A program made the translations under genes and the position numbers. DNA of 39,544 bases from Candidatus Micrarchaeota archaeon (GTDB lineage Archaea > Iainarchaeota > Iainarchaeia > Iainarchaeales > JAGVWC01), in NCBI GenBank assembly GCA_043803815.1, contig JAZDJR010000005.1:1-39544 (forward strand). Reading direction: 5' to 3'. The notes under the pieces were generated by a model. It made no database searches. It had not been told where the DNA came from and saw nothing but the letters and a program-made list of their open reading frames with translations. Below, piece after piece: positions 13,021-39,407 of the stretch. Position 1 is the first letter of the stretch. The number at the start of each line of letters is the position of its first letter.

Positions 13021-13140
13021 ATCCGGCGTTTTCCAAGGCGGTTAATCCAAGGCCGCTTGCCCTTGGTAACTGGGGCAGCCGGCAGCACCTGCCCGAACAG
13101 GCGGAGCAATAATCAGCAATGACTGAGAGTGTATGATAGT

Positions 13141-14688: not shown

Positions 14689-14695
14689 GGAAATT

Positions 14696-16387: not shown

Positions 16388-16488
16388 CAAAACAGACACA
16401 ACCCGCCAAAAAATCATTAAAAAACCAAGGTTACTGCTACATAATTTGGATGGTTTTTAACCTTGTTTTTCGTTCAAAATATGCGCCT

Positions 16489-17073
16489 ATGAAAGAAAAC
16501 CCAAAAGTAATAGCAATTTCATGCTCTCATCGAAACAACGCCAATACCGAACAAATGCTGGCGGAGTGCCTGTCCGAACTGAAAAAACAAGGGGTTTCGT
16601 TTGAACTGGTGGCACTTCGAAAACTCGACATGAAGGCGTGCGACGCCTGTTCCGAATGCGAAAAGGACAATCGCTGCCGAGTGAACGACGATTTGCAAAA
16701 AATTTATCCGAAACTATTGAACGCAAAGGCCTGGATTGTCGCTACTCCCGAATACTGGATGAACGTGTCGGGGCTGTGCAAGAATTTTTTGGACCGCTTG
16801 ACGCCGTACTGGATGGAGCGCAAAAAGCATTTCGCAAAAAAAAAAGCCGCGATTATCACCTGCGGAGGCCAGCCAAGGAGACGCATCGGCCATGCCGAAA
16901 AATATCTCCGGCTTTTTTTTTCCAAACTGCATATGAAAGTGATTGGAAGCGTTTTGACCAGCGCAGAAGAACCGAAAGAGGTTTTAGCGCAAGCCAAAAT
17001 TTTGCGGGAATGCCGAAACTTGGGGAAAAAAATCGCGGACGGTTTAAGGAAGGAATCTTATGGCGGAAAGTGA
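16489..17073 (+). CDS. Iron-sulfur flavoprotein / NADPH-dependent FMN reductase family (flavodoxin fold)
   Basis: SHRNNANT FMN loop, CDACSECEKDNRC cluster motif, and ATPEYW.NVSG..KNFLDR. Confidence 0.88.
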   Translation: MKENPKVIAISCSHRNNANTEQMLAECLSELKKQGVSFELVALRKLDMKACDACSECEKDNRCRVNDDLQKIYPKLLNAKAWIVATPEYWMNVSGLCKNFLDRLTPYWMERKKHFAKKKAAIITCGGQPRRRIGHAEKYLRLFFSKLHMKVIGSVLTSAEEPKEVLAQAKILRECRNLGKKIADGLRKESYGGK

Positions 17074-25812: not shown

Positions 25813-26002
25813 AGTTTTCACTTTCCCGAAAAAATTTTCTGAAAAAACCCGAAAATTCGCCTGAATTTTGTTTTTTTATCCAACTAACCGTTTAACAATT
25901 TGAATAAAAAACCATCGCGGAAAAAAACGGAAATTAAGGCAATTGCCGTTCCCAAGCGGTTTTGACCAACGGTTTTTATACAATTGTTGGTTTAGTGTTT
26001 GC

Positions 26003-27301
26003 ATGCCAAAAATAGACCTAACTGGTTTTTATAAAAAAAACCTGGACGAGCGATTGCAAATCGTCCGGAAATTTGCGGAATTAAGCGAAGAAGAAATCGG
26101 ACAGTTCAAAAAATTCGGGTCTTTGGATTTTGAAACCGCGAACCGCATGATTGAAAACGTCATTGGAACGTTTAATTTTCCCCTTGGAATCGCCACCAAT
26201 TTTATCGTCAACGGAAAAGAAATCCTGGTTCCGATGGCCATTGAAGAGCCGTCGGTTGTTGCCGCGGCATCAAACGCCGCTCGGCTTTGCCAATCCACCG
26301 GCGGATTTACGGCCGGCGCGACCGCGCCGGAAATGATTGGCCAAATACAACTGGTCAATGTAAATGATTCAACAAAAGCCATTCAAAAAATAAAGCAAAA
26401 CGAAAAAAGCCTGATTGAATTTGCCAATTCGTTTGATTCCGTATTAATCAAACTGGGCGGCGGCTGCCGACGGATTGAAAGCCGCGAAATCAAGACCCAA
26501 AGCGGTTCCATGCTGATTGTGCACCTGATTGTGGATGTGCGCGACGCGATGGGCGCCAACGCGGTCAACACCATGTGCGAACGCCTGGCACCCGAATTCG
26601 AAGCAATTACCGGCGGAACCGTTCGTTTGCGCATCATTTCCAATCTGGCTGTTTACCGCCTGGCGACCGCCAAGGCTGTCTGGAAAAAAGAAGAGCTTGC
26701 GGAAAGCATCAAAAATATGGAAATTTCTCCGGACGAAGTCGTGGACCGGATTTTGGACGCGTATTATTTTGCTGACAACGATGTTTTTCGCGCGACCACA
26801 TTCAACAAGGGAATCATGAACGGAGTCGACGCGGTCGCTATCGCAACGGGGCAGGATTTTCGCGCATTGGAAAGCGGGGCGCATTCTTACGCCAATTACA
26901 AAAACGGGGAGTACAAGCCGCTGACTTGGTACTACAAGGATAAAGACGGCAACCTGGCCGGCGAAATCGAGCTTCCAATGGCTGTCGGCCTGGTCGGCGG
27001 CGCAACCAAAACACATCCATTGGCCGGAATCAATTTGAAATTATTAAAAGTCAAAACCGCACAAGACCTTGCGGAAATCATGGCGGCTGTCGGTTTGGCG
27101 CAAAACTTTGCCGCGCAGCGCGTGCTCGCAACCGAAGGCATCCAGCGCGGCCACATGGGTCTGCACGCCAAAAACATCGCTATTATGGCGGGCGCCAAAG
27201 GCGAACAAATCGAAAAAGTCGCGGAACAACTCGTCAAAAACAAAAACGTCAGCGTATCCGCGGCGCAGGAAATTCTGAAGGGTAAAAAATGGCGCGTGTA
27301 A
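26003..27301 (+). CDS. mvaA: HMG-CoA reductase, class II
   Basis: MIENVIG, PMAIEEPSVVAAAS, DAMGANAVN, NKGIMNG, GQDFRALE and GIQRGHMGLHA. Confidence 0.95.
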   Translation: MPKIDLTGFYKKNLDERLQIVRKFAELSEEEIGQFKKFGSLDFETANRMIENVIGTFNFPLGIATNFIVNGKEILVPMAIEEPSVVAAASNAARLCQSTGGFTAGATAPEMIGQIQLVNVNDSTKAIQKIKQNEKSLIEFANSFDSVLIKLGGGCRRIESREIKTQSGSMLIVHLIVDVRDAMGANAVNTMCERLAPEFEAITGGTVRLRIISNLAVYRLATAKAVWKKEELAESIKNMEISPDEVVDRILDAYYFADNDVFRATTFNKGIMNGVDAVAIATGQDFRALESGAHSYANYKNGEYKPLTWYYKDKDGNLAGEIELPMAVGLVGGATKTHPLAGINLKLLKVKTAQDLAEIMAAVGLAQNFAAQRVLATEGIQRGHMGLHAKNIAIMAGAKGEQIEKVAEQLVKNKNVSVSAAQEILKGKKWRV

Positions 27302-27426
27302 ATGTTGCGGGAATGCAGGCATCCAAAAAACCGAAAGACTGGAAGTTTTTGGCAATTTTGATTGTGATTATTTTGTTGTACGCTTTGTCCAAGGTTTTGC
27401 CTTTGCTCAAAACCGTCGGGAAATAG
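27289..27426 (+). CDS. Small single-TM protein (45 aa; alternative start 27313)
   Basis: Manual translation: MARVNVAGMQASKKPKDWKFLAILIVIILLYALSKVLPLLKTVGK*. Overlaps the HMGR stop. Below the ORF-track length cutoff. Confidence 0.55.
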   Translation: MARVNVAGMQASKKPKDWKFLAILIVIILLYALSKVLPLLKTVGK

Positions 27427-27457
27427 GTAAAAAAGGAAAACTTGTTTTTGTGATGCT

Positions 27458-27769
27458 ATGTCAAACTATGTGCTTGTTTTCGATGAAGTTATTTTGGGAC
27501 AATTGAAAAAACTCGGCAAAGATAAGCCAACGAGGGAACTTTTGTCCAAGATGCTTGACAAAATCGAGGAAAACGGCCCAATGGCCGGAAAATTGCTGGA
27601 TTCAAGGCTTCATTTGTTCGAAGTCAAGGCAATGCACCCGCCGATTCGGTTATACTACAAAATCAACGAACTGGCCAAAGAAGCGTATGTTTTTGAATTT
27701 GAAATGAAAACAAGCCCTGAAAAACAAAATCGAACCATCGCTAAAATCAGGGAAAAATCAAAACCCTAA
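27458..27769 (+). CDS. RelE/ParE-like toxin
   Basis: 103 aa: Y.LVF...QLKKL, KMLDKIEENGP.AGKLL, LFEVK, IRLYYKI and AYVF follow the RelE layout. GTGA SD upstream. Confidence 0.65.
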   Translation: MSNYVLVFDEVILGQLKKLGKDKPTRELLSKMLDKIEENGPMAGKLLDSRLHLFEVKAMHPPIRLYYKINELAKEAYVFEFEMKTSPEKQNRTIAKIREKSKP

Positions 27770-27916
27770 GTCTTTTCGGGTGAATTTTTTTCCGTTGGCA
27801 ATGTTTTGTTCGAATTCCAAAAGGCGTTTGTATAATTGGGATGAACGCAAAACGCGCGCTTCCCGTTTTAAAGCCACGTATTCGCATTTTGGAATGGTCA
27901 CAGTTTCTGAAATCAT
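27758..27916 (-). CDS. Small putative antitoxin (archaeal RelB-like)
   Basis: MISETVTIPKCEYVALK...EQNIANGKKFTRKDLGF (52 aa). TVTIPKxEYxxLK and IxxGKxxTxxDL resemble small archaeal antitoxins. Confidence 0.55.
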   Translation of the reverse strand: MISETVTIPKCEYVALKREARVLRSSQLYKRLLEFEQNIANGKKFTRKDLGF

Positions 27917-28040
27917 AATATATGAATAACTCAATAGCAAAATAAAAGGATACTTGTTTTGGATAGTCAATCGTCGAAATTTACCCTGCGGATTAACGAA
28001 GCGTTTTTTAATGCAAAGGCGCATGGTTGATAAGTTATTT

Positions 28041-29090
28041 ATGAAACCCGTTGGAATCGTAGGATATGGGGCTTTTGTGCCCAGATTACGCATTACCGTG
28101 CAGGAAATCGCGAATACCTGGAAAAAAGACGGAGCCAAAATCAGTGCGGGCTTGGGATTAAAGGAAAAAGCCCTGGCCGCAATCGACGAGGACTCAGCAA
28201 CGATTAGCGTGGAAGCAAGCCGCACCGCGCTACAGGTTTCCGGAATTCATTCGCAAAAAATCGGCGCGATTTTTGTCGGAAGCGAATCGCATCCGTACGC
28301 GGTCAAGCCAACGGCAACGATTCTGGTGGACGCATTAAACGCGGGTCCGGATTGCATGGCCGCGGATTTAGAGTTTGCATGCAAAGCAGGAACCGCGGGA
28401 ATACAAATCTGCATGGGACTTGTGGCCAGCGACATGATTGAATACGGATTGGCGGTTGGAGCCGACACCGCGCAAGGAAGGCCGAATGACGCTTTGGAAT
28501 TCACCGCGGGAAGCGGCGGAGCGGCAATGATTATCGGAAAAGAAAAAGAAGAAATGATTGCGACTTTGGACGACACCTATTCGTTTACCACGGATACGCC
28601 GGATTTTTGGCGGAGGCAGCACGCGGACTTTCCGCGCCACGCGGGAAGATTTACCGGAGAGCCCGCGTATTTCAAGCATGTGGAAAACGCGTGCACGGCC
28701 ATGCTCAAAAAAAGCGGGCTTTGCCCGAAAGATTTCGCGTTTGTCGTGTTTCACCAGCCCAACGGAAAGTTTCCCGCAATCGTTGCCAAAAAACTCGGGT
28801 TTTCGGATTTGCAGTTAAAACAGGGATTATTGACGCCGCTTATCGGCAATACGTATTCGGGAGCCACCATGATCGGCCTCTCGTCAGTTTTGGATGCTGC
28901 AAAGCCCAATGACAAAATTTTGGCTGTCAGTTACGGTTCGGGCGCGGGAAGCGACGCGTTTGTACTAACGGTTACCAAAAACATTTTGAAAAAACGGCAG
29001 CCTGTTCCGGTTTTTGAAATGATAAAGGAAAAAGAATACGTTTCGTACGCGGAATACGCCAAGCACAGGAAAAAATTGAAGAGTTTGTGA
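28041..29090 (+). CDS. Hydroxymethylglutaryl-CoA synthase, archaeal type
   Basis: GIVGYG, DEDSAT, GSESHPYAVKP, DLEFACKAGT, TTDTPDFWRR, RFTGEPAYF, FHQPN and GNTYSG. Confidence 0.96.
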   Translation: MKPVGIVGYGAFVPRLRITVQEIANTWKKDGAKISAGLGLKEKALAAIDEDSATISVEASRTALQVSGIHSQKIGAIFVGSESHPYAVKPTATILVDALNAGPDCMAADLEFACKAGTAGIQICMGLVASDMIEYGLAVGADTAQGRPNDALEFTAGSGGAAMIIGKEKEEMIATLDDTYSFTTDTPDFWRRQHADFPRHAGRFTGEPAYFKHVENACTAMLKKSGLCPKDFAFVVFHQPNGKFPAIVAKKLGFSDLQLKQGLLTPLIGNTYSGATMIGLSSVLDAAKPNDKILAVSYGSGAGSDAFVLTVTKNILKKRQPVPVFEMIKEKEYVSYAEYAKHRKKLKSL

Positions 29091-29095
29091 AAAAA

Positions 29096-29479
29096 ATGCC
29101 TAAAACAATCCCGTTCCCGACCCCAGAAAGACTGGCCCGCGCTTTGGAATCGGAATACAAAATCTCGAACCGCTCGCCGCTGTGGACTTTTTCAACGAAA
29201 GCCGCGGGACTGGTTCCCGTGCTTGGGGAACTGGTTTCGTTGAGTAGTGCCACCCGAACCGAAGACCCGAAAGCGCGCCAAAAAAGAGTAATGTCCTTGA
29301 TTTTTTCAAGCCCGCAAAACGCGGCCGCGGTTTTGCGCCAAACCAAAAACCCGCGCTTAAAACAATGGCTGGCTAACCGCATTGCCGGCCGCTGGAAAGT
29401 CCAACGCGGTCCGGTTAAACTCCAGCGCTCGGCCAAACGTCCCGCCCGCCGATTGGAACTGCAACGGAGAGTGGCCTAA
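29096..29479 (+). CDS. Hypothetical basic protein
   Basis: ORF fills the HMGS-thiolase gap exactly. Arg-rich C-terminus and no recognisable motif. Confidence 0.65.
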   Translation: MPKTIPFPTPERLARALESEYKISNRSPLWTFSTKAAGLVPVLGELVSLSSATRTEDPKARQKRVMSLIFSSPQNAAAVLRQTKNPRLKQWLANRIAGRWKVQRGPVKLQRSAKRPARRLELQRRVA

Positions 29480-30649
29480 ATGAGAAGCGTCAGCATCATC
29501 GGTTGCGGCCGCACATCGTTTGGCGAACATTGGAACGAAAGTTTTCGCGATTTAATCGGAAAAGCGGGTTTAGCCGCGCTTGAATCCGCCCAAATCGAAG
29601 GAAAAGATATTGAAGCGATTTATGGCGGAACCATGGCTTCGGGCCGGTTTGTCGGGCAGGAACATATCGGGGCGTTGATTGCAGACCAGCTCGGATTAAA
29701 CCCGATTCCGGCTACGCGGTTTGAAGCCGCGTGTGCGTCGGGCGGCGTGGCATTGCGGCAGGCTTATTTGTCGGTGGCTGGAGGCGCGTACGATTGCGTA
29801 GCCGTTGGCGGAATCGAAAAAATGACGGAAATTTCCGTTGAAGAGGCGGGATTTGCACTCGGCGGAGCTGGGGACCAGGAAACCGAATTGTTCCACGGCG
29901 CGACTTTTCCCGCATTATACGCTTTTTTGGCCAGGATGCACATGGAACAGTTTGGAACAACCGAAGAACAAATGGCGGCAGTGTCCGTCAAAAACCACCA
30001 CAATGGAAACTTAAATCCTTATTCGCAGTTTCACCGCGAAATTACCGTGGACGATGTGATGAGTTCTGGGTATGTGGCGTCCCCGCTAAAATTATTGGAT
30101 TGCTCTCCGATTAGCGACGGCGCCGCCGCATTGGTTTTAATGGAAACGTCCAAAGCCCGAAAAATTTGCGAGCAGCCCGTTGAAATATTAGCCAGCACGC
30201 AAGCATCCGATTCGCTGGCACTGACCGGAAGAAAAAGCCTGACCGAACTGGCCGCTACTCGGATTGCGGGAAAACAGGCGTATGAGCAAGCCAAGTTAAA
30301 ACCCAAAGATATTCACGTAGCCGAACTTCATGATTGCTTTAGCATTAGCGAGATATTTGCAATAGAAGATTTGGATTTTTTCAAAAAAGGCGAAGGCGGA
30401 AAGGCTACGGAACAAGGAAAGACCGCGCTGGATGGCGAAATTCCGGTTAATCCGTCCGGCGGATTAAAAATGGGCCACCCGGTCGGAGCAACAGGGGTCA
30501 AACAAGCGGTTGAAATGTTTTGGCAGCTCACCGACCAGGCCGATAAACGGCAAATTAAGAACGCCCAAATCGGATTAACGCACAATTTAGGGGGCAGCGG
30601 AGCCACTTGCGTTGTGCACATCCTTAAACAACTAGAGGGAAAACGATGA
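29480..30649 (+). CDS. Acetoacetyl-CoA thiolase, archaeal type
   Basis: EAACASGG, GIEKMT, LLDCSPISDGAAA, AELHDCF, NPSGGL, GHPVGATG and HNLGGSG. Confidence 0.96.
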   Translation: MRSVSIIGCGRTSFGEHWNESFRDLIGKAGLAALESAQIEGKDIEAIYGGTMASGRFVGQEHIGALIADQLGLNPIPATRFEAACASGGVALRQAYLSVAGGAYDCVAVGGIEKMTEISVEEAGFALGGAGDQETELFHGATFPALYAFLARMHMEQFGTTEEQMAAVSVKNHHNGNLNPYSQFHREITVDDVMSSGYVASPLKLLDCSPISDGAAALVLMETSKARKICEQPVEILASTQASDSLALTGRKSLTELAATRIAGKQAYEQAKLKPKDIHVAELHDCFSISEIFAIEDLDFFKKGEGGKATEQGKTALDGEIPVNPSGGLKMGHPVGATGVKQAVEMFWQLTDQADKRQIKNAQIGLTHNLGGSGATCVVHILKQLEGKR

Positions 30650-30726
30650 ACAAAACCCCGAAAAACAAGTTTGAACGGCAACATGCGCTCATCACAAACA
30701 TTATCACTGGCGGAAAAAAATGGTAG
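30646..30726 (+). CDS. Possible 26-aa bridging mini-ORF
   Basis: MNKTPKNKFERQHALITNIITGGKKW*. ATGA overlap with the thiolase stop; its end overlaps the DUF35 start. Confidence 0.3.
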   Translation: MNKTPKNKFERQHALITNIITGGKKW

Positions 30727-31124
30727 AAAATGCTATTGCGCTTCATTGGCGAAGATACCCCGAACGATATTTACTCAAGGGAAACCATTGCACTACGTGC
30801 AAAACCGATTATTTCCCCGCGCGGTTGTTCTGCCCGAACTGCCGCAGAAAAGGAAAACTCGTTTCCAAGGAAATGCCGCGGACCGGCAAAATAATTTCTT
30901 TCACCGAAGTGTTCGTGGGCCCCATGGGATTCGAAAACGAAACCCCGTATTTTTTGGCGCTCATTGATTTGGGAAACAGCTGCAAAATCCTAAGCCAGCT
31001 TGTGGATTCTCCGCGGGAAAAAATCAGGACCGGCGCGAATGTCAAAAAAATGTTCCGCAAAATACAGGACAACGACCCCGAAGGAGCGATTGCGTACGGG
31101 TATAAATTCAAGGTTGTTGAATAG
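30720..31124 (+). CDS. DUF35 Zn-ribbon/OB-fold scaffold of the thiolase-HMGS complex
   Basis: WR..PERY.L.G, CTTC and CPNC, G.I.SFT, PY.LALIDL and YGYKF. Confidence 0.93.
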   Translation: MVENAIALHWRRYPERYLLKGNHCTTCKTDYFPARLFCPNCRRKGKLVSKEMPRTGKIISFTEVFVGPMGFENETPYFLALIDLGNSCKILSQLVDSPREKIRTGANVKKMFRKIQDNDPEGAIAYGYKFKVVE

Positions 31125-31139
31125 GATATTTGAGAAAAT

Positions 31140-32486
31140 ATGGCGAGAATTCTAACGCCGGGCAAAATTAGGAAAAAAGTTTTCCGCGCAATGGGTTTAG
31201 GAAGAGGGCCCCTTGTGCAAGGAACACAGCCGAGATTGCAAAGATATTTCGAGCCTTTTTCTTCAAAGCAGTATCCAACAAACAGGTCTGCTGATGCAAG
31301 CAGGGTTCCAATGGAATTTGGCGCAAGGCAATGGGGACACACGGAATTCCTACAAAACGCATTGAAAAGCCCCGCAATTGCAAGGCAAATAGCAAGAGAC
31401 CCGATTGCAAGAATAGAATTTGAAAAAGCAATTTTTGATGCACTGCAGGAAAGAGCATTGAAAGCATATTCTGAAGAATGGTCTGCTTTGTCACCAAAAA
31501 CAATTTCTACTTTGATTGAAAGAGCAAAAAGAACCGCTTCAAAGCCAACACCAGCACTTGCCAATGAACACAATGCAAGAATGGTTGCGCAGGAAGCAAT
31601 GCAACGGCTGCAAAAAGGAAAAATGGTTACAATTTTTGACCTTGGTTGTGGTGGCGGCGGAACAATTATTCCAATAATTGACTCCATTCCACAAGAGTCA
31701 AGGCACAAAATTCAGGTAGTGCTGATTGACGTAATGCCGACCGGCTTGAAAAGCACTGCAAGAAAATTAATGCGCCGGGGATTGGTTGGAAAAGGACAAA
31801 TAATTGCAATAAAAGAAAACATTTCAAAACTAATGGGCAATGACAGAATTGCACGCTTGTTTGGCACAGCAGACATCATAACAAGCGGAGCAGCACTGCA
31901 CCATGTTTCGGCAATAGAACCAACTTTTGAGGGAGTAAAAAGATTATTGAAAAAAGACGGCGCATTCATTTTTTGGGATTGGGGGCATACGGCCTGGAGA
32001 GCGCCGAATTTAGTTATTGCGCCGGAAGGAGCAAGAGTTGACAAATATGGAAGATTTTATGAGCAGGGCACCAGAACAACCGAAGCCGGAAAAAAAACTG
32101 CTTTTGTAAGCAGGGGAAAAATCGCGGGAATTTCAGGGGGTCGGGCGCCAACAGAATATCAAACGGCCAGGGAAATGCTTTCAACATGGATAAAATTGTT
32201 GCATTTTTCAGAAGAAAGAAAACAAGGGTTTTTGGAATGGTTTGACAGAAAAGCACTGCGGGGAGAACCAATCAATTTTGCAGAGTACTTGAAAAGGGTT
32301 GAAGGCGCACAACTTGAAAAAGGGATGCCAAGAGCAGAACTAAAATACTGGGAAGGCCACCGACCGCCAGAATTATACCATGATGCGATGCGCAATGTCG
32401 GCCTGATTGGAGAAAACAAAAAACCATTTACAATTTATTCAACACAAAGCCCGCTGTTATACCAAATAAAAGTAAGAAAGGGGTGA
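31140..32486 (+). CDS. Class I SAM-dependent methyltransferase domain protein
   Basis: IFDLGCGGG motif I, LIDV, ADIITSGAALHHV and LLKKDGAFIFWD. Long unrelated N- and C-terminal extensions. Confidence 0.8.
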   Translation: MARILTPGKIRKKVFRAMGLGRGPLVQGTQPRLQRYFEPFSSKQYPTNRSADASRVPMEFGARQWGHTEFLQNALKSPAIARQIARDPIARIEFEKAIFDALQERALKAYSEEWSALSPKTISTLIERAKRTASKPTPALANEHNARMVAQEAMQRLQKGKMVTIFDLGCGGGGTIIPIIDSIPQESRHKIQVVLIDVMPTGLKSTARKLMRRGLVGKGQIIAIKENISKLMGNDRIARLFGTADIITSGAALHHVSAIEPTFEGVKRLLKKDGAFIFWDWGHTAWRAPNLVIAPEGARVDKYGRFYEQGTRTTEAGKKTAFVSRGKIAGISGGRAPTEYQTAREMLSTWIKLLHFSEERKQGFLEWFDRKALRGEPINFAEYLKRVEGAQLEKGMPRAELKYWEGHRPPELYHDAMRNVGLIGENKKPFTIYSTQSPLLYQIKVRKG

Positions 32487-32490
32487 TTTA

Positions 32491-33417
32491 ATGGTTCAAG
32501 GAAGCGGATTCGGAAAGGTCATTCTGTTCGGCGAGCATTTTGTGGTTTACGGCCTGCCCGCAATTGCCGCGGCACTCGGCGAAACCACGACTGCCAAAGT
32601 TACCAAAGCCAAAAAATTCGAATTGATTGACAATCGGCCCGAAACACCCGGCTATAAAAAGGAAAAATTCGAGCAGCAGCAAAAATCGCTGGAACTCATT
32701 TTCAAAGCCGTGGAATTTGACCCGGAAAAAACACCCGTACGAATCGAGCTTGGCGGAAAACTAGTGGCTGCTTCCGGGGTCGGGGCCAGTGCAGCAAGTT
32801 GCGTGGCAATCGCCCGCGCCATTTCCAAATTCCAGGGAAAAAACCTTTCGAACGAAAAAATCAATGAAATCGCGTACCAAGGGGAAATGGGCTACCACGG
32901 AACCCCAAGCGGGATTGACAACACGGTTTCAACCTATGGCGGATTAATCTGGTTCCAGAAAGGGCCGCCGATTGTATTGCAACCGATTTCGACGAATATT
33001 CAATTGCATTTGGTGGTTGCCAACACGGGAAAAACATCCGATACCAGCGCGGTTGTAGCAGACGTAAAAAAATGGAAAGAAAACAACCCAAAAAAATTTG
33101 AACAAATTGTCTCAGAATACAAACAGTTGATTGAAAACGCAAAACAAGCGATTCAACAAAACGACTTGAATACAATCGGCGAATTGATGAACCAAAACCA
33201 TTCTCTGCTGCAACAAATAGGGATTTCGTGCAAGGAGTTGGATTCAATCGCTGAAACCGCGCGCACGAATGGCGCCTTGGGAGCCAAACTGACGGGAACC
33301 GGAAGAGGCGGACTGGCGATTTGCCTGGCAAAAGACCAAAAAAGCCGGCAGGCAATCAAAAAAGCGATTCAAGAATTCGGCTTTAAAACCGAAACTACGG
33401 TAATTAACGGAAAATGA
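32491..33417 (+). CDS. mvk: Mevalonate kinase
   Basis: GKVILFGEHFVVYG, GHMP loop ASGVGASAA, HGTPSGID and GAKLTGTGRGG. GGTGA SD upstream. Confidence 0.95.
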   Translation: MVQGSGFGKVILFGEHFVVYGLPAIAAALGETTTAKVTKAKKFELIDNRPETPGYKKEKFEQQQKSLELIFKAVEFDPEKTPVRIELGGKLVAASGVGASAASCVAIARAISKFQGKNLSNEKINEIAYQGEMGYHGTPSGIDNTVSTYGGLIWFQKGPPIVLQPISTNIQLHLVVANTGKTSDTSAVVADVKKWKENNPKKFEQIVSEYKQLIENAKQAIQQNDLNTIGELMNQNHSLLQQIGISCKELDSIAETARTNGALGAKLTGTGRGGLAICLAKDQKSRQAIKKAIQEFGFKTETTVINGK

Positions 33418-33475
33418 TAGTCCTTGCCCCCATGCTTATTTAGGAGTTTCCAACCGAAACTTTAACGGTTAAATC

Positions 33476-34027
33476 ATGAAATTGATTGTGGCGATTTGCG
33501 GCGCTTCCGGGGCCGGATACGGAATATCTTTACTGCGCGCGTTAAAGGAAGCCAAAGTGGAAACACATTTGGTATTAAGCGAATGGGGCAAAGAGTTGGT
33601 CAAAGAAGAAACCGATTGGACGTTGGAGCAGGTAAAAAAACTGGCCGGCAAAAGCTATGAATACAACGACTTGGCCGGAACCATCAGCAGCTCTTCGTTT
33701 TTGGTGGATGGAATGATTATCTGCCCGGCCACGGTAAAAACGGTTTCCGAAATTGCGCACGCAAACGCCAACAATTTGATTTCAAGGGCTGCCGACAATA
33801 TGTTAAAAACCAGAAAAAAATTGGTGGTTTGCATCCGGGAAACCCCCTTGAGCACGCCCTGCTTGGAAAATCTTGTCAAATTGTCGCAGTACGGGGCAGT
33901 GGTAATGCCTTTAAGTCCGGGGTTCTACCAAAAGCCAAAAAAAGCCGAAGAACTGTATGATTTTATGAGCGGAAAAATCCTTGACTTGTTTGGAATTCCG
34001 AACCAAAAATTCAAGCGGTGGGAATGA
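33476..34027 (+). CDS. ubiX: Flavin prenyltransferase (prFMN synthase)
   Basis: VAICGASGA, ISSSSF, NLISRAAD..LK, RETPLS and PGFYQKP. Confidence 0.92.
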   Translation: MKLIVAICGASGAGYGISLLRALKEAKVETHLVLSEWGKELVKEETDWTLEQVKKLAGKSYEYNDLAGTISSSSFLVDGMIICPATVKTVSEIAHANANNLISRAADNMLKTRKKLVVCIRETPLSTPCLENLVKLSQYGAVVMPLSPGFYQKPKKAEELYDFMSGKILDLFGIPNQKFKRWE

Positions 34028-35340
34028 TGTCGTTTAAAAGCCAATTGGAAAAACTCGAAAAAAACGGAAAACTGCTGAAAATCCAAAAACCGGTCAGCAA
34101 AAAACTGGAAGCATCCGCAATCCTAAACCAAATAGAGCCCCAAGCGGTTTTGTTTGAAAAAATAGCGGAATCCGAATTTCGAGTCGCCGCGAACATTTTT
34201 CCAACCAAACAATCCATCGCAGATTATTTGAATTGCAAGGTAAGCGAACTGATTCCAACCATTACAAAAGCGATTGAAAACCCGAGCGAAGCGCAGGAAA
34301 CCAAAAAAGCCCCGTGCCAGGAAGTAGAAATGGAAACCGTCGATTTGGACAAACTGCCAATCCTTTTTCACGCGGCAAAAGACGGAGGCAATTACATCAG
34401 CAGCGGAGTCGTAATCGCCAAACACCCAACATACGGGCAAAACCTGGATTTTCACCGCTGCATGCAAATCGGAAAAAACAAATTCAGCATCCGAATCGTG
34501 AAAAAAAGGCACTTTGACGAGTTTTTGCAAAAGCAGGGAGAAATGCCAATGGCAGTCTGCATTGGCAACGGAGCCAACATACTCGTGGCAGCCGCAACCT
34601 CGGTTGAACTCGGAAAAAACGAATTGGAAATCGCCAATTCTTTGGAGCCATTGCAAGTGGCAAAAGCCAAAACATTTGATGCCTTGATTCCCGCGGAATC
34701 CGAATTCGTATTGGAAGGAATTGTTTCCTTGGAAGAAAAAGCAAAGGAAGGGCCGTTCATTGATTTGACCGAAACCCAGGACGTGATAAGACAGGAACCA
34801 GTTTTTACAGTAACCAAAATCACGCACCGCAAAAACGCAATTTGGCAAGCGCTCTTGCCGGGAAAACTGGAACACAAAATTTTGATGGGAATGCCCCGCG
34901 AACCCACGATTTTCAAAAAAGTAAACGAAGCCGGAGTGCAATGCCTGGACGTGAACGTGAATCCCGAAGGCTGCAGCTGGCTGCACGCACGAATCAAAAT
35001 CCAAAAGAAACGCGAAGACGATGGAAAAAACGCTATTCAGGCGGCTTTTGAGGGGCACCATAGCTGCAAGCACGTTTTTGTCGTGGACGAGGATATCGAC
35101 ATTTACGATTCCGCGAGCATGGAATGGGCTTTTGCAACCCGCTTTCAGGCGGATATGGGCTTTGTAATAAAACCGAAAGAAAAAGGCTCAAGCCTGGACC
35201 CCAGCGCGGAACCCGAAACAAGCCTTACCACCAAATGCGGATTCGACTTGACCAAACCGTTGGTTGCCAAGGGAAAAAACTTTGAAAAAGCGGAATACCC
35301 AAAAATAGACTTGAAAAAATTTACGGAGAAAAACGCATGA
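34024..35340 (+). CDS. UbiD-family prFMN decarboxylase, probable anhydromevalonate phosphate decarboxylase
   Basis: LPIL.H...DGGNYISSG, N..FHR, EFVLEG, EGPFIDLT, VVDEDIDI and GSSLDPS. Specific call rests on gene context. Confidence 0.88.
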   Translation: MMSFKSQLEKLEKNGKLLKIQKPVSKKLEASAILNQIEPQAVLFEKIAESEFRVAANIFPTKQSIADYLNCKVSELIPTITKAIENPSEAQETKKAPCQEVEMETVDLDKLPILFHAAKDGGNYISSGVVIAKHPTYGQNLDFHRCMQIGKNKFSIRIVKKRHFDEFLQKQGEMPMAVCIGNGANILVAAATSVELGKNELEIANSLEPLQVAKAKTFDALIPAESEFVLEGIVSLEEKAKEGPFIDLTETQDVIRQEPVFTVTKITHRKNAIWQALLPGKLEHKILMGMPREPTIFKKVNEAGVQCLDVNVNPEGCSWLHARIKIQKKREDDGKNAIQAAFEGHHSCKHVFVVDEDIDIYDSASMEWAFATRFQADMGFVIKPKEKGSSLDPSAEPETSLTTKCGFDLTKPLVAKGKNFEKAEYPKIDLKKFTEKNA

Positions 35341-36509
35341 AGCTCACACTTGAAGAACAGGAAATGCTGGACGGCAAAAAAGGAAATGCCTGCCAAAAAA
35401 GCATGGAATTGCTGGTGGCCTTGGGTAAGATTTATGGCGCCAAACGGCTGATTGCGGCTTCCAGCGTGCAGATTGCGGGAGTCAGCTATGACAATTTGGG
35501 GGACCCTGGATTGCAATTTCTGGCGGAGATGGCCAAAGACGGAAAAACCAAGGTATTGACAACCTTGAATCCCGCGGGAATGGACTTGGAAAACTGGAAA
35601 GAGCTTGGAATTTCAAAAGATTTTGCGGAAAAACAGGAAAAAGTAATCAATGCATTCAAGGCCATGGGCGTAATAACGACCTGCACCTGCACCCCGTATT
35701 TGATTGGAAACTGCCCGCATTTTGGAGAACATATTGCGTGGAGCGAGTCCAGCGCGGTATGCTACGCGAATTCCGTTTTGGGCGCGTACACAAACCGCGA
35801 AGGCGGACCCAGCGCGTTAGCAAGTGCCTTAACCGGAAAAACACCGGAATACGGAATGCACCTGGAAGAAAACCGCCAGGCGCAAGTGTTGGTGCAATTG
35901 GAAAAACCGTTAAGAGGAACATTCCGCTTTGGTGCATTGGGAAAAGCGATTGGAGAAAAAATAGGAAACAAAATACCGCTAATTGTCGGGCAAAAAACAG
36001 CCACTTTGGAAGAATTGAAAAGCCTAAGCGCAAGCATTGCCACCTATGGCGGAACCGCAATGTTTCACATGCAGGGAATCACTCCCAGTCCGACCAAAAA
36101 ACCAAAAGAAACGATAGTGATAACAGAAAAAGAAATTGAAAATGCAATTGCAAGCCTGACCATGGAAGGAAACTCCGATTTTATCAGCATCGGCTGCCCC
36201 CACGCCAGCATCGCGGAAATAGCCAAAATCGCAGGATTATTGGAAGGAAAATCCGTCAAAAAAGAAGTGTGGATTACCACGGCACGGCCAACCAAAAAAA
36301 TTTCCGACCAAATGGGATACACTCAAACGATTGAAAAATCCGGCGCAAAATTTGCCGCGGACACCTGCTGCGTCGTTGCTCCAATCAAAGGACGGTTCAA
36401 ACTAATGACAACCGACTCCGCCAAAGGCTGTTTTTATGCGGCCAGCAAAAACAAGTTCAAAACGCGATTAAAAAGCCTGGAAGCATGCATTCAAGAGGCA
36501 TTGGAATGA
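35337..36509 (+). CDS. Aconitase X large subunit, probable phosphomevalonate dehydratase large subunit
   Basis: QIAGVSY, TTLNPAG, TCTCTPY, AWSESSAV.YANSVLGA.TNREGGP, IGCPHAS, DTC and TDSAK. Confidence 0.93.
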   Translation: MKLTLEEQEMLDGKKGNACQKSMELLVALGKIYGAKRLIAASSVQIAGVSYDNLGDPGLQFLAEMAKDGKTKVLTTLNPAGMDLENWKELGISKDFAEKQEKVINAFKAMGVITTCTCTPYLIGNCPHFGEHIAWSESSAVCYANSVLGAYTNREGGPSALASALTGKTPEYGMHLEENRQAQVLVQLEKPLRGTFRFGALGKAIGEKIGNKIPLIVGQKTATLEELKSLSASIATYGGTAMFHMQGITPSPTKKPKETIVITEKEIENAIASLTMEGNSDFISIGCPHASIAEIAKIAGLLEGKSVKKEVWITTARPTKKISDQMGYTQTIEKSGAKFAADTCCVVAPIKGRFKLMTTDSAKGCFYAASKNKFKTRLKSLEACIQEALE

Positions 36510-36895
36510 AACTGAACGGAAGAACCATTTACAAGGGAAAAACCGAAGGCGAAATCCTCAAAACAAGCCAGGGAATTTCGCTTTATGGCGGAGTAAACGG
36601 CGACACGGGAATTATCGAACAGGAAGGACACGAACTCAAAGGACAAAGCATCGCGGGAAAAATACTGGTTTTTCCAGAAGGAAAAGGAAGCACGGTTGGA
36701 AGCTATATCCTATACCGCCTAAAAAAAAACGGAAAAGCCCCCTTAGCTATACTCAACAAAAACTGCGAAACAATAGTGGCGGTAGGCTGCATTATCGCGG
36801 AAATCCCCTGCATTGACCAACTCGATATTGAAAAACTGCAAACCGGAAAAAAAGCAAGCGTAGACGCGGAAAAAGGAACCGTAGAAACCAAGTGA
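36506..36895 (+). CDS. Aconitase X swivel subunit (DUF126), phosphomevalonate dehydratase small subunit
   Basis: IS.YGGV...TG.I, GKILVFP.GKGSTVGSY and AVGCIIAEIP. ATGA overlap with the large subunit. Confidence 0.93.
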   Translation: MKLNGRTIYKGKTEGEILKTSQGISLYGGVNGDTGIIEQEGHELKGQSIAGKILVFPEGKGSTVGSYILYRLKKNGKAPLAILNKNCETIVAVGCIIAEIPCIDQLDIEKLQTGKKASVDAEKGTVETK

Positions 36896-36899
36896 AAAA

Positions 36900-37703
36900 A
36901 TGACGGAATTATACATACTAAAACTCGGCGGTTCGGTTTGCACGGACAAGCAAAACAACCGTTTTAAAGTCAACGAACAAATCGTCCGCCTCGTAGCCCG
37001 CGAAATCAAGTCCGCCCGCAAAAAAAAGAAGTTCCGCTTAATCGTGGTCAACGGCGCGGGCCCATTCGGCCACACCAACGTGCACGAGTACGGGATTAAT
37101 AACGGTGTTCGTTTTCCAAAAGACTTTGAAGGGATGTGCAGGACCGCAATCGATTGCGCGGACTTAAACCTGCAAATCGCAAAGCTGTTTTGGAAAGAAG
37201 GATTGCTTGCGTATCCCGTTCCGGCGTCGGCAATTACGGTTCAAAAAAACAAAAAAATTGTTCATCAGGATACCGCGGTTATTTCGGAATTGTTCAGACA
37301 AAACGAACAATTAATCCCGGTTTTAAACGGAACTTTTGTGGCAGATAACAAAATCGGCGGAAGCGTGGTTTCCGGAGACGCCACGATTGCGCATTTAGCC
37401 AAAAAACTGCACGCTAAAAAAGTCTTGTTTGGAACCGACGTGAACGGGGTTTACACCCGCGACCCCAAAAAATTTTCGGACGCAAAACAAATTCATTTGA
37501 TTTCGAAAAAGAACTGGAAAACTGTTTTACTTGGAGTGGGTGAATCCGCGGCGCTTGACGTCAGCGGCGGAATGAAGGGAAAACTCGGCCGCCTCGCGGA
37601 AAAGACCCGCGGGATTCCCATCGTTATTTTTGACGCGACCAAAAAAGGAAACACCTTTGACGCGCTTAGCGGGAAAAAAATCGGGACTTTAGTCGGGCTG
37701 TGA
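36900..37703 (+). CDS. ipk: Isopentenyl phosphate kinase
   Basis: ILKLGGSVCTDK, GAGPFGH, VVSGD, GTDVNGVY and DVSGGMKGKL (amino-acid kinase fold), plus pathway context. Confidence 0.88.
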   Translation: MTELYILKLGGSVCTDKQNNRFKVNEQIVRLVAREIKSARKKKKFRLIVVNGAGPFGHTNVHEYGINNGVRFPKDFEGMCRTAIDCADLNLQIAKLFWKEGLLAYPVPASAITVQKNKKIVHQDTAVISELFRQNEQLIPVLNGTFVADNKIGGSVVSGDATIAHLAKKLHAKKVLFGTDVNGVYTRDPKKFSDAKQIHLISKKNWKTVLLGVGESAALDVSGGMKGKLGRLAEKTRGIPIVIFDATKKGNTFDALSGKKIGTLVGL

Positions 37704-37707
37704 AAAA

Positions 37708-38248
37708 ATGGGTTCTATTCTGGAAAACCGTGGGGCGAATACCAACCGTGGGGCAGGAGCCATCGTTTTTGCCGAAAAAGACGGGCAGCGCTATGTCCTA
37801 TCGGTTCAGCGGGCGAATACTAAAAAATGGAACCGCCAAGTCATGCTGGGTGGAGCGGGGCACATCAAGGAAAAGGAAACTCCGGAAGTCGCGATGCTTC
37901 GCGAACTAAACGAGGAACTAGAACTAAAACCGCGGGAGATTTTGAGCATGAAAACAATCGGCCAGGTACCTGCTACACGAGAAGAACACGCAGGAATTCA
38001 AGTTTCCTTTTTTTTTGGTTCAAGTGCCGTTTGAACGCCTGCAAAAAATGGTTTTGGATATCAACAAGACGCCCAAGCGCTTTGAGGAACTGCGCGGCGC
38101 GCGTTTAAACCGTATTTCCACCCTGGCTAAAACCCAAAAGCGATTGCAGTCGCATTACCGCGATTTTTTTCCCTTGGCGGAAAAAGAGCTTCGGGTTCCC
38201 AAAAAAACCGTGGGCAAAACGATTGTCGCCAACAGGCGGAAAAGATAA
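37708..38248 (+). pseudogene. Nudix hydrolase split by a frameshift in a T9 tract (real slippage site or assembly error)
   Basis: Nudix box GHIKEKETPEVAMLRELNEELEL. T9 at 38008-38016; removing one T gives ...QVSFFLVQVPFERL...NRRKR*, joining ORFs 37708-38034 and 38015-38248. Confidence 0.75.
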
Positions 38249-38330
38249 AAAAACTGCAATTAACGGGAAAAAGGGGGTCAATCGCCGTAGCATTTTGTTT
38301 AAAATTAACCATTTCCCATTGAGTATAGGT

Positions 38331-39407
38331 ATGACAAAAGCATTTTCAAAACAGACCGAATCCCGCAAGAACGAGCATTTGCAAATTGTGGCTGAAAAAA
38401 ACGTGGAGTACCGCAATAAGCCCACGGGGCTTGGGGACGTTCGGTTTGAAGGCGTGGAACTCGAATACAAAACGCTTCCGGAAATCAACAAAAAAGAAAT
38501 TACGCTTGAAACCAAATTTTTGGGAAAAAAATTTGCACTGCCTTTTTTTGTCAGCGGAATGACCGGCGGAACGGCCGAAGCCCAAAAAATAAACCGCGAA
38601 ATCGCGGTTGCGGTTGAAAAATTGCATATCGGGATGGGCGTCGGAAGCCAGCGCGCCATGATTGAAAACCCGAAGCTTTCGGAAACCTACAACGTGCGAA
38701 AGGTAATGCCCAACGCTTTTTTAGCTGGAAACATAGGAATTGCGCAGTTATTGGAATATCCGGTGGAAAAAATAGAGCATGCGCTGGACCAAATCAATGC
38801 GGACGCTTTGGCGGTTCATTTGAACGCCGGCCAGGAAGCCGTGCAAACCGAAGGAGATACGGATTTTAAGGGAGCAATTTTACAAATTAAAAAAACCGTG
38901 CGGGAACTGAAAGGAAAATATCCCGTGTACGTAAAAGAAGTGGGAAACGGAATCGATTCCAAAACCGCGGGCGCACTTTCCAAGGCGGGGGTGGCCGCGA
39001 TTGATGTGCAAGGGGCGGGCGGGACCAGCTGGGTGGGAGTCGAAGTTTTAAGAAAAAAAAGCGACGTGGGAGAAGCGTACTGGGATTTCGGGATTCCGAC
39101 CGCGGTTTCAATCGTGAATTGCAGAAAAGTATTCAAGGGTCCGATTATTGCCAGCGGCGGAATCAGAAACGGCTTGGATGCGGTTAAGGCGTTTGTTTTG
39201 GGGGCGGACCTCGCGGGAATGGCACGGCCTGTTTTTTTAAGCCAGCAAAAAAATGGGAGCGCCGGAGTAACCGATTTGTTTGAACGAATGGCCGAAGAAC
39301 TTCGGACGGGAATGTTTTTGGTCGGTGCCAAAAATCTGTCCGAACTGAAAAAAACGCGGTTTTTTTTGGAAGGAAAGACCCGCCAGTGGCTTGAAAAATT
39401 AAAATAA
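38331..39407 (+). CDS. fni: Type 2 isopentenyl diphosphate isomerase
   Basis: RKNEHL, SGMTGG, GVGSQR, VHLN..QE, VKEVGNG, GAGGTSW and IASGGIRNG. Confidence 0.96.
   Translation: MTKAFSKQTESRKNEHLQIVAEKNVEYRNKPTGLGDVRFEGVELEYKTLPEINKKEITLETKFLGKKFALPFFVSGMTGGTAEAQKINREIAVAVEKLHIGMGVGSQRAMIENPKLSETYNVRKVMPNAFLAGNIGIAQLLEYPVEKIEHALDQINADALAVHLNAGQEAVQTEGDTDFKGAILQIKKTVRELKGKYPVYVKEVGNGIDSKTAGALSKAGVAAIDVQGAGGTSWVGVEVLRKKSDVGEAYWDFGIPTAVSIVNCRKVFKGPIIASGGIRNGLDAVKAFVLGADLAGMARPVFLSQQKNGSAGVTDLFERMAEELRTGMFLVGAKNLSELKKTRFFLEGKTRQWLEKLK

Follow-up and report, generated by a model that had tools for sequence, protein, structure and literature searches.

The archaeal mevalonate (MVA) pathway that runs through trans-anhydromevalonate phosphate was reportedly first described from Aeropyrum pernix and Methanosarcina mazei. 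An account of this route is given in PMC10040528. Mevalonate genes have been reported in Diapherotrites/Iainarchaeota, and the archaeal type is described as the commonest one in DPANN archaea (PMC6107057, PMC11052028, PMC10936187). Classical, haloarchaeal-type and Thermoplasma-type lower pathways have also been recorded in DPANN at the level of presence or absence (PMC11052028, PMC6107057), and a 2024 survey describes MVA genes as mostly clustered (PMC11052028).

The window, meaning the whole 39,544-nucleotide stretch of DNA that was analyzed, is one entire contig, and carries on its plus strand a gene cluster (26003-39407) that ends 137 nt from the contig end. As in the A. pernix and M. mazei pathway, the cluster encodes mevalonate kinase (MVK), a two-subunit AcnX of type IIb, UbiD with UbiX, and isopentenyl phosphate kinase (IPK). 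It differs from that pathway in that the steps from acetyl-CoA to DMAPP lie in one colinear operon, the HMG-CoA reductase (HMGR) is of class II, and three or four extra genes are present (a methyltransferase, a RelE-like ORF, an orphan ORF and a broken Nudix gene). HMM searches against Pfam and NCBIfam bore out the eleven pathway genes named in the initial annotation: class II HMGR, HMG-CoA synthase (HMGS), thiolase, DUF35, MVK, UbiX, UbiD, the large and small AcnX subunits, IPK and type 2 isomerase (IDI-2). Nine of these exceeded the curated NCBIfam cut-offs, and DUF35 and the large AcnX subunit were assigned by Pfam. That gene list had, however, left out a 448-residue methyltransferase and two smaller ORFs, orf103 and orf130. 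Every cluster gene is present in single copy in the genome, and core genes are separated by -25 to +70 nt; judged by gene spacing only, the cluster would be co-transcribed. The host genome (1.08 Mb, 85.6% completeness) shares its GTDB order with the 'Candidatus Iainarchaeum archaeon SKW153' MAG (G039), and the host is therefore placed in the Iainarchaeales, in agreement with the DPANN origin first proposed.

The cluster opens with HMGR (26003..27301), for which the ORF begins at TTG 25943 and the likely true start is ATG 26003. This protein matched the class II model TIGR00532 at 453.7 bits (cut-off 259.95; PF00368 E 3e-109) and scored 60.2 bits against the class I model TIGR00533 (cut-off 441.8). 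The class II assignment thus stands, but it does not single out this locus, as many class II HMGRs are reported from DPANN, Asgard and TACK archaea (PMC6107057). Archaeal-type HMGS (28041..29090; ORF opening at 27954, likely start ATG 28041) matched NF003274 (530.6 bits, cut-off 244) and TIGR00748 (521.3, cut-off 353). The archaeal-type acetoacetyl-CoA thiolase (29480..30649) exceeded the cut-off of NF004720 (544.8 bits versus 420) and fell under that of NF053570 (550 versus 600). It is followed by a DUF35 OB-fold/zinc-ribbon protein of the type that serves as scaffold in the archaeal thiolase/HMGS complex (30720..31124; PF01796 E 3.7e-12, PF12172 E 2e-5), and further downstream by MVK (32491..33417; TIGR00549 254.9 bits, cut-off 163.05). 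Together, thiolase, HMGS and DUF35 would convert acetyl-CoA to HMG-CoA, HMGR would yield mevalonate, and MVK would phosphorylate mevalonate at C5.

The lower half of the cluster begins with the flavin prenyltransferase UbiX (33476..34027; TIGR00421 215.6 bits, cut-off 108.9), a predicted source of prFMN for the UbiD-family decarboxylase that overlaps it (34018..35340; TIGR00148 350.8 bits, cut-off 244.85, with all three UbiD Pfam domains). Next are the large subunit of a type IIb AcnX (35337..36509; PF04412, 498 bits) and the small, or swivel, subunit (36485..36895, likely start ATG 36506; PF01989 E 1.5e-33, NF003046 168.6 bits versus 163). IPK (36900..37703; NF040647 191.1 bits, cut-off 120) and IDI-2 (38331..39407; TIGR02151 376.5 bits, cut-off 281.3) complete the set; the IDI-2 ORF opens at TTG 38223 and its likely start is ATG 38331. 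Read from its context, UbiD is a putative trans-anhydromevalonate-5-phosphate decarboxylase (AMPD), and the large AcnX subunit a putative phosphomevalonate dehydratase. AcnX would dehydrate mevalonate-5-phosphate to trans-anhydromevalonate-5-phosphate, UbiD with prFMN would decarboxylate this to isopentenyl phosphate, IPK would yield IPP, and IDI-2 would equilibrate IPP with DMAPP. The gene set, which includes the cofactor gene ubiX, therefore supports the complete trans-anhydromevalonate-phosphate pathway that had been proposed.

It was considered whether UbiD, UbiX and AcnX might instead have a different substrate (an aromatic or unsaturated acid, for example) and lie in an MVA operon by chance. 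The UbiD match is at the subfamily level only (TIGR00148), and among solved structures it is closest to aromatic-acid decarboxylases; the best PDB relative is a generic UbiD entry, 6h6v, and no AMPD structure was present in the PDB copy searched. Against this, the best solved relatives of the large AcnX subunit are 7CNR/7CNS of Thermococcus kodakarensis (E 6.6e-99 over residues 1-388), named as putative PMDh in PMC10040528, a far better match than the type I AcnX hydroxyproline dehydratase (5e-54). Cys118, Cys287 and Cys344 align with the three cluster-binding cysteines of TkPMDh (7CNR). The large AcnX subunit adjoins UbiD in 70 of 80 related loci from many phyla, often with MVK, IPK and IDI-2. 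A profile search found no match to an MVD/PMD-family gene in the host genome, so that without UbiD, UbiX and AcnX the host would have no route from mevalonate-5-phosphate onward to IPP, despite the presence of IPK. A different substrate is accordingly very improbable.

Similar clusters occur in 12 Asgard-labelled loci (within L031-L059), where HMGS, HMGR, UbiD, both AcnX subunits, MVK, IPK, IDI-2 and UbiX lie together as they do in the window. Their HMGR is 47-51% identical to that of the window, and a GGPP synthase (GGPPS) lies beside each Asgard cluster. The Asgard clusters differ in gene order, in an HMGS that is only 26-30% identical, and in the placement of UbiX and GGPPS on the other strand; thiolase and DUF35 were not found in these 12 loci. 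Among relatives of the host, gene order was colinear in all 14 loci compared, which represent 13 families: six loci hold all 11 genes, four end at contig ends and four lack an adjacent IDI-2 or IPK. These arrangements, the near-complete Asgard clusters and the UbiD-AcnX adjacency contradict the view that genes of this pathway are usually dispersed.

The initial annotation had itself named a host lineage in which the operon is standard as what would speak against its reading of the cluster. The host order is such a lineage, as indicated by the colinear loci, by UbiD profile matches in 75 of 196 genomes, and by surveys in which both MVA genes and class II HMGR are recorded for this lineage (PMC6107057, PMC11052028). 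The cluster is thus very probably the native mevalonate operon of an Iainarchaeales archaeon, passed down vertically, and the normal arrangement of its order. It had been proposed instead to be a self-contained, possibly transferable module; read this way, it would be a recently acquired isoprenoid island that confers lipid-precursor autonomy on a lineage otherwise lacking it. Patchiness within the order (the UbiD count above, and HMGR in 27 of 40 relatives) would suit such an acquisition, as would an insert in the operon interior that has low GC (0.384) and carries a RelE/ParE-like gene, the clear differences between the lower halves of close relatives, and a UbiD tree in which two genomes of one family (f6) are not sisters. 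Support at that point of the tree is weak, and the tree departs from family labels in places. UbiD of the window nevertheless falls in a DPANN clade of 20 rows with 98% SH-aLRT support, distinct from the clades of Asgard/TACK and of Chloroflexota; 16 rows are from the order, two are labelled Aenigmatarchaeota, one Thermodesulfobacteriota, and one is other. Close to the HMGR end, 8 of 30 loci have a PPDK homolog, and these loci cover every type of lower pathway; core-gene GC (0.43-0.51) resembles that of the remaining contig, and the window contains no tRNA and, among the ORFs scanned, no integrase or transposase family. Together with the conserved gene order, these observations make transfer of the operon as a whole improbable. 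Neither a UbiD nor an MVD-family match was found, at the thresholds applied, in 72 of 196 genomes of the order, a distribution compatible with loss and also with a degree of transfer.

Turnover among relatives is confined to the lower half of the operon. Genomes of the order keep the upper part, from HMGR to MVK, as a constant scaffold, while the lower half is an exchangeable module. Behind the same HMGR-HMGS-thiolase-DUF35-MVK genes, relatives carry classical, PMD plus IPK (haloarchaeal-type), Thermoplasma-like or hybrid lower parts, whereas AcnX/UbiD is the sole route in the window. The lower half consists of MVD plus PMK in five loci (L108, L110, L111, L113 and L114), of MVD, an IDI-1-like gene and IPK in L115, and of a Thermoplasma-like set in L140/L157. 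In four genomes of family f23, one operon combines the AcnX/UbiD set with an MVD-family gene.

Potential users of the operon product are also encoded. A short-chain (GGPP-type) trans-prenyl diphosphate synthase (7552..8640, plus strand; PF00348 E 6.6e-71) lies 17 kb upstream of the operon, with the IdsA and GGPP synthase NCBIfam models as its best matches, below their cut-offs. CDP-archaeol synthase (CarS), a cis-prenyltransferase and a DGGGP-synthase-like UbiA are found in the host genome, and these four enzymes would draw on the operon product. The search for lipid genes suggested earlier was thus successful for the DGGGP-synthase-like UbiA, but the 85.6% complete genome yielded neither GGGP synthase (PcrB) nor a G1P-dehydrogenase-type Fe-ADH_2, which leaves the lipid pathway with gaps in the present assembly. 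PcrB is present in 36 of 40 relatives and in all three from the host's family; for Fe-ADH_2 the counts are 16 of 40 and none of three.

The initial annotation regarded the uncharacterized genes of the cluster as pathway candidates, and this holds for the methyltransferase only. This protein, MTase448 (31140..32486, plus strand, 448 aa), is encoded between DUF35 and MVK and is a class I SAM-dependent methyltransferase with Methyltransf_11/12/25/31 domains at residues 155-282. The new lead from this locus is its uncharacterized family, always within MVA operons among genome loci (19 of 19, whatever the lower pathway; 10 of 13 metagenome loci). This linkage holds at 23-30% identity and across two subfamilies. 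By lower-pathway type, its partners are 8 AMPD-type, 11 MVD-family, 1 both and 2 neither. The SAM motif D167-x-G169-x3-G173-x-T175 plus D197 is kept in 18 of 18 family members, and conservation extends to R105, R188, K447 and several Trp residues, a pattern that would suit a small anionic, partly hydrophobic substrate. MTase448 is probably an accessory enzyme linked either to the upper pathway or to the product shared by all pathway types; the favoured guess, though less likely than not, is methylation of a prenyl diphosphate or of an anionic intermediate of the pathway.

MTase448 could quite conceivably, if short of probably, act off the pathway, as a regulator or a protein or RNA methyltransferase, or be a gene retained only through shared expression. 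It falls under the cut-off of every curated family (BioC 28.4 bits versus 185; UbiE 20.4 versus 216). Its position in the operon varies, at times with placement on the opposite strand (L131, L134), and the pathway runs without it, the gene being present in only 23 of the order's 196 genomes. Such a role is harder to reconcile with the strict operon linkage at low identity, with co-occurrence across all lower-pathway types, and with the conserved Arg, Lys and Trp residues. The AlphaFold2 model (pLDDT 84.5, pTM 0.86) has an intact SAM motif and the class I SAM fold of C-methyltransferases (yeast Coq5 and the PKS domains CurJ, AprA MT2, PsoF, citrinin synthase, LovB and DszA) and of prenyl-diphosphate methyltransferases (GPP methyltransferase 4f84, and the IPP/DMAPP methyltransferases described in PMC9401056). 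It differs from these carbon methyltransferases in identity (10-17%) and in about 110 N-terminal residues with no structural match. VIA-align Z-scores of its neighbours range from 16 to 20.5 (4obw 20.5, 5thy 19.7, 6d6y 19.6, 6kjg 19.2, 4f84 16.3); being nearly tied across many substrate classes, they cannot fix the substrate. The best PDB sequence-profile match is the DszA/DisA C-methyltransferase (E 1.9e-4).

The remaining extra genes, orf103, orf130 and Nudix, had no homolog in the 136 related loci searched. The first, orf103 (27458..27769, plus strand), lies in the low-GC insertion (27302-28040) between HMGR and HMGS and is not part of the pathway. It had no Pfam or NCBIfam match even at E<=1, but a structural search of the ESM Atlas gave TM 0.71-0.77 to RelE/ParE clusters, and the closest clusters are DPANN hypothetical proteins; it is thus a RelE/ParE-fold toxin-like small protein. 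The basic orphan orf130 (29087..29479, plus strand) fills the gap between HMGS and thiolase exactly (-4 and 0 nt) and has a GC of 0.555. It had no Pfam or NCBIfam family match, its sole match among 5.8 billion proteins was the window's own record, and its coding status is doubtful; the region had no Rfam match and an RNA fold z-score of -0.90. The Nudix hydrolase gene (37708..38248, plus strand; PF00293 E 2.3e-10 over the first 108 aa) is present as first annotated, but is broken by a frameshift in a T9 run near 38007-38015, with a stop at 38246-38248. A 172-aa homolog (P0030, 85% identity) aligns in frame +1 as far as about 38016, and its remainder in frame +2 up to the stop. This family has only two members among 5.8 billion proteins and is unrelated to the IDI-1-like Nudix genes in relatives' operons; the gene is a rare, lineage-specific insertion.

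All of the genes named in the initial annotation were found on the plus strand between positions 26003 and 39407, nine of them by NCBIfam cut-offs and two, the DUF35 protein and the large AcnX subunit, by Pfam, from which the identity of these two proteins is taken. The NCBIfam assignments were HMGR class II (TIGR00532, 453.7 bits against a cut-off of 259.95), HMGS (NF003274, 530.6 bits against 244), thiolase (NF004720, 544.8 bits against 420), the mevalonate 5-kinase MVK (TIGR00549, 254.9 bits against 163.05), the prFMN synthase UbiX (TIGR00421, 215.6 bits against 108.9), UbiD (TIGR00148, 350.8 bits against 244.85), the small AcnX subunit (NF003046, 168.6 bits against 163), IPK (NF040647, 191.1 bits against 120) and IDI-2 (TIGR02151, 376.5 bits against 281). 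The reading of HMGR as a class II enzyme was upheld by the class I model TIGR00533, which scored only 60.2 against a cut-off of 441.8. Neighbouring core genes are separated by -25 to +70 nt, and none of the genes has a second copy in the host genome, an assembly of 1,083,160 bases in 36 contigs (85.6% complete, 1.3% contaminated) in which the window is all of contig C5.

AcnX is of type IIb, with two subunits on adjacent genes (PF04412, 498 bits, and PF01989). The best PDB match of the large subunit was the phosphomevalonate dehydratase (PMDh) TkPMDh (7CNR, E 6.6e-99), with whose cysteines Cys118, Cys287 and Cys344 align. These three would correspond to Cys122, Cys297 and Cys356 of ApPMDh (PMC10040528). 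The UbiD protein satisfies the subfamily model TIGR00148 and adjoins AcnX; at this subfamily level it is a putative trans-anhydromevalonate-5-phosphate decarboxylase (AMPD). No GHMP-type mevalonate (di)phosphate decarboxylase was matched by TIGR01240 in the host genome at its 85.6% completeness. Judged from sequence, the operon would encode the archaeal-type route from mevalonate-5-phosphate through trans-anhydromevalonate-5-phosphate to isopentenyl phosphate. A literature search on AMPD and PMDh gene clusters returned unrelated UbiX papers only. Being fully colinear, with 11 genes leading from acetyl-CoA to DMAPP, the operon is a compact kit with which the ATP-saving archaeal route could be rebuilt in another host.

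Sequences flanking the UbiD homolog were compared in 14 relatives belonging to 13 families. A single gene order (HMGR-HMGS-thiolase-DUF35-MVK-UbiX-UbiD-AcnX large-AcnX small-IPK-IDI-2) was seen in all 14 loci, six of which carry all 11 genes; four end at contig ends, and four are without an adjacent IDI-2, or without IPK and IDI-2. Of the order's 196 genomes, 75 contain UbiD by profile search. In a species-representative genome collection with 574 confirmed UbiD relatives, AcnX large follows UbiD in 70 of the best 80, and 12 Asgard-labelled loci each hold nine pathway genes and a GGPP synthase gene. Clustering is common both inside and outside the order, and the expectation that these genes are usually dispersed was not borne out. 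Already in print are the pathway, its presence in Iainarchaeota and Diapherotrites, and class II HMGR in DPANN archaea: surveys report mevalonate (MVA) genes in Diapherotrites and class II HMGR as numerous among DPANN, Asgard and TACK archaea (PMC6107057), as well as MVA genes in Iainarchaeota (PMC10936187). To this the operon by itself contributes little. The colinear loci, the UbiD counts and these surveys place the host in a lineage that has this operon as its norm, the finding that the initial annotation had named as refuting its reading; the operon, though well preserved, is an ordinary example of a kind already known. The relatives often have 0.8-1.6 kb inserted between core genes (L020, L021, L023, L108), for example between HMGS and thiolase or thiolase and DUF35. 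Two archaeal-type clusters carry bacterial titles, one titled Nanopelagicaceae, Actinomycetota (L032), which groups with Asgard sequences, and one titled Thermodesulfobacteriota (L049), which groups with DPANN sequences; both are likely mis-binned archaeal contigs.

The description of the host as DPANN-like was correct, because a relative in the same order, 'Candidatus Iainarchaeum archaeon SKW153', has the lineage Iainarchaeota, kingdom Nanobdellati, and because homologs of MTase448, a 448-aa methyltransferase encoded in the operon, bear the source name 'Candidatus Diapherotrites archaeon'. The placement in Iainarchaeales is based on kinship labels and one NCBI name. The 40 nearest genomes all measure 0.5-1.5 Mb (1.08 Mb for the host) and fall within one order under 32 family labels.

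The evidence counts against the proposal that the operon as a whole is a transferable island, and this interpretation is not supported. In a quick maximum-likelihood tree of 93 rows, the window UbiD fell within a 20-row clade (98% SH-aLRT) made up of 16 rows from the order, two labelled Aenigmatarchaeota, one from a mislabelled or foreign contig, and one unnamed. This clade stands apart from a monophyletic Chloroflexota clade and from a mixed Asgard/TACK clade. In the window, and likewise in 8 of 30 loci from relatives, the HMGR end has a PPDK homolog nearby, in the relatives within about 0.15-6 kb. No tRNA was found in the window and no integrase or transposase families among its large ORFs, and GC of the core genes (0.43-0.51) is like that of the remainder of the contig. 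Two observations do point to some transfer: the two genomes of family f6 are not sisters in the UbiD tree, where support is weak, and neither decarboxylase type (UbiD or MVD family) was found in 72 of the 196 genomes at the thresholds used.

What does change within the order is the lower half of the pathway. Among the 40 relatives, HMGR was present in 27 and UbiD in only 16. The relatives without UbiD keep HMGR, HMGS, thiolase, DUF35 and MVK in order, followed by another lower part. In L108, L110, L111, L113 and L114, the first of which is from the same family as the window, this part holds an MVD-family decarboxylase (TIGR01240, 309-360 bits) and a phosphomevalonate kinase (TIGR01220), with either an IDI-1-like Nudix gene or IDI-2. 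L115 carries MVD-like, IDI-1-like and IPK genes, and one lineage (L140 and L157) carries two MVD/M3K-like genes and IPK, an arrangement that looks Thermoplasma-type. Over the whole order, the MVD family was found in 53 of 196 genomes, in 49 of them above cut-off. Both routes occur in one operon in four loci, all of family f23: L153 (G133:C77), L154 (G123:C2), L155 (G118:C4) and L156 (G135:C18). These operons read MVK, MVD-like, IDI-1-like, UbiX, UbiD, with AcnX large next wherever the contig continues, and then AcnX small and IPK in L153 and L155. With an MVD-family set and a UbiX-UbiD set side by side, two parallel routes to isopentenyl phosphate therefore adjoin, and these operons may be caught midway through the replacement of one pathway by another. 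Within a single order, and even a single family, the lower MVA genes have been swapped while the upper scaffold in front of them stayed fixed. This exchange, together with the two-route operons, is relevant to the dispute about the earliest MVA variant.

The gene list of the initial annotation left out MTase448, a class I SAM-methyltransferase gene (31140-32486, plus strand) lying between DUF35 and MVK; it also overlooked or misjudged three further ORFs, orf103, orf130 and Nudix. A word-indexed search placed 28 proteins in its family, and among 1.84 billion representatives 410 matched at E<=1e-3, of which 26 reached E<=1e-30, all without names. Within the order, 23 of 196 genomes have the gene. 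In 18 of 19 genome loci it has MVA genes no more than 1.5 kb away, and in the nineteenth (L157), seen in wider DNA, it is also inside the operon. In metagenomes it was found with MVA genes in 10 of 13 loci, two of these ten being from the same organism as L157; the other three loci are too short to tell. Its usual position is between DUF35 and MVK, but in two cases it is found between IPK and IDI-2, and in two it is on the opposite strand. MTase448 accompanies every lower-pathway type: the other 22 genomes that encode it comprise eight with UbiD only, 11 with the MVD family, one with both and two with neither. The family divides into two subfamilies, with 23-31% identity between them. No paper on a methyltransferase inside DPANN MVA operons was found in a literature search, which is not proof of absence. 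In the L140 operon (5799-16572; same organism as L157, G108:C23), whose lower part is the Thermoplasma-like one, the stretch between DUF35 and the lower genes encodes a 726-aa family-less protein, MTase448, a second methyltransferase (236 aa), a HAD hydrolase and a TrmB-type regulator.

All 18 MTase448 family members compared, from both subfamilies, share residues D167, G169, G173, T175 and D197, which comprise the glycine-rich motif I and, in D197, the acidic residue expected to contact the ribose of SAM. Matches to four Methyltransf Pfam models exceed the cut-offs, and by motif and Pfam match the protein is assigned as a class I SAM-dependent methyltransferase. W114, N142 and R188 are likewise present in 18 of 18 members, and R105, W279, W281, W350 and K447 in 17 of 18. 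The AF2 model is confident (pLDDT 84.5), and its nearest structural neighbours are nearly tied, with Coq5 and TmtA at Z 20.5, BioC at 17.5, JHAMT at 17.0 and a GPP methyltransferase (4f84) at 16.3; seven polyketide-synthase C-methyltransferases are among the top 13. The first ~110 residues gave no structural match. Assignment as UbiE/COQ5 was rejected (NF001244, 20.4 against a cut-off of 216), as was assignment as BioC (TIGR02072, 28.4 against 184.95). The Z-score of 4f84, a prenyl-diphosphate C-methyltransferase, is below the top rows and within the general methyltransferase range, and 4f84 was not among the PDB profile matches at E<=1. Searches for a substrate name yielded generic domains only (NCBIfam and Pfam), weak matches only (PDB profiles), a TM by query of <=0.39 (Foldseek) and generic bacterial methyltransferase clusters (ESM Atlas).

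From these data we infer that MTase448 is a small-molecule methyltransferase acting on something common to all operon types; candidate substrates are a thioester of the upper pathway, mevalonate, mevalonate phosphate, and prenyl diphosphates of C5 or longer. We consider it rather unlikely, taken as a whole, that MTase448 is a new isoprenoid-pathway enzyme leading to methyl-branched C6 units and that the two-route f23 operons are living intermediates of replacement. Were this so, MTase448 would found a SAM-methyltransferase family of ~450 aa with two subfamilies, so far seen only in Iainarchaeota-type genomes and always in MVA operons. It would methylate an upper-pathway thioester (e.g. acetoacetyl-CoA) or a C5 phosphate or diphosphate, and the lipids of these DPANN archaea would contain isoprenoid units that are methyl-branched (C6). 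The family is small and uncharacterised, and its tie to the operon is strong enough to justify a substrate screen. Two leads remain: the MTase448 family, bound to the operon, and the exchange of lower-pathway genes in place, two-route operons included.

The suggestion that uncharacterised genes inside the operon are pathway candidates was borne out for MTase448 and failed for orf103, orf130 and Nudix: a search of 136 related loci gave no homologs of these three, and none of them can credibly be proposed as a pathway gene. Nudix (37708-38248) matches PF00293 over its first 108 aa. Its reading frame, as assembled, is broken: a 172-aa protein (85% identical), the only homolog in 5.8 billion proteins, aligns in frame +1 and then +2, with the shift in a T9 run and the gene end at 38248. 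In public reads, one DNA run held 0.07 of the sampled words, with contigs lacking the T9 site, and no RNA dataset was listed. Descent as a relic of the relatives' IDI-1-like Nudix genes was rejected for want of similarity, and a role in general cofactor supply (DMAPP to DMAP for UbiX) was rejected because the gene is frameshifted, has one other family member in 5.8 billion proteins and has no homolog in the related operons searched. The ORF orf103 (27458-27769) lies within a low-GC insert between HMGR and HMGS; it has no Pfam match at E<=1, and its predicted structure gave TM values of 0.71-0.77 to RelE/ParE clusters in an ESM Atlas search, so that a RelE/ParE-like fold is predicted. A 52-aa ORF (27758-27916, minus strand), convergent with orf103 in the same insert, could be a candidate antitoxin partner. 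The third, orf130 (29087-29479), fills the HMGS-thiolase gap exactly. An RNA or repeat in its 389-nt stretch was rejected: there was no Rfam match, the fold z-score was -0.90, the stretch is single-copy, and no protein homolog was found.

As for downstream lipid genes, the host genome encodes CDP-archaeol synthase, a cis-prenyltransferase and one UbiA enzyme whose closest models, those of DGGGP synthase, it matches with scores under the cut-offs, and a GGPP-synthase-like gene lies within the window. GGGP synthase was not found in the host genome (85.6% complete); 36 of 40 relatives have it, among them 3 of 3 from the host family, so genome incompleteness is the likely cause. Fe-ADH_2, the family that holds G1P dehydrogenase, was also not found in the host genome, and it occurs in 16 of 40 relatives and 0 of 3 from the host family. 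This pattern agrees with the loss of G1PDH inferred in a published analysis for the ancestor of Iainarchaeota and Micrarchaeota (PMC12892359).

Several neighbouring genes were also noted. The PPDK-type PEP-utilising enzyme (21874-25821, minus strand) is 1315 aa long, with its domains split into several stretches and a weak LAGLIDADG_3 match (E 1.8e-4) just under the cut-off; in the relatives the PPDK matches run without a break and are much shorter. The window PPDK probably contains an intein. Some 9 kb upstream of the operon there is an NADPH-dependent FMN reductase gene (16333-17073, plus strand); UbiX and IDI-2 both require reduced FMN. A ThyX-type protein (14696-16417, minus strand) has two Thy1 stretches in 573 aa, about twice the usual length, and in L024, L025 and L113 the operon likewise has a ThyX homolog close to its HMGR end. 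A 1092-aa protein with YadA-head repeats (9742-13020, plus strand) and a 519-aa protein with Big_7 and carboxypeptidase-regulatory-like domains (13129-14688, plus strand) are probably surface proteins, of a kind that may matter for contacts between a DPANN archaeon and other cells.
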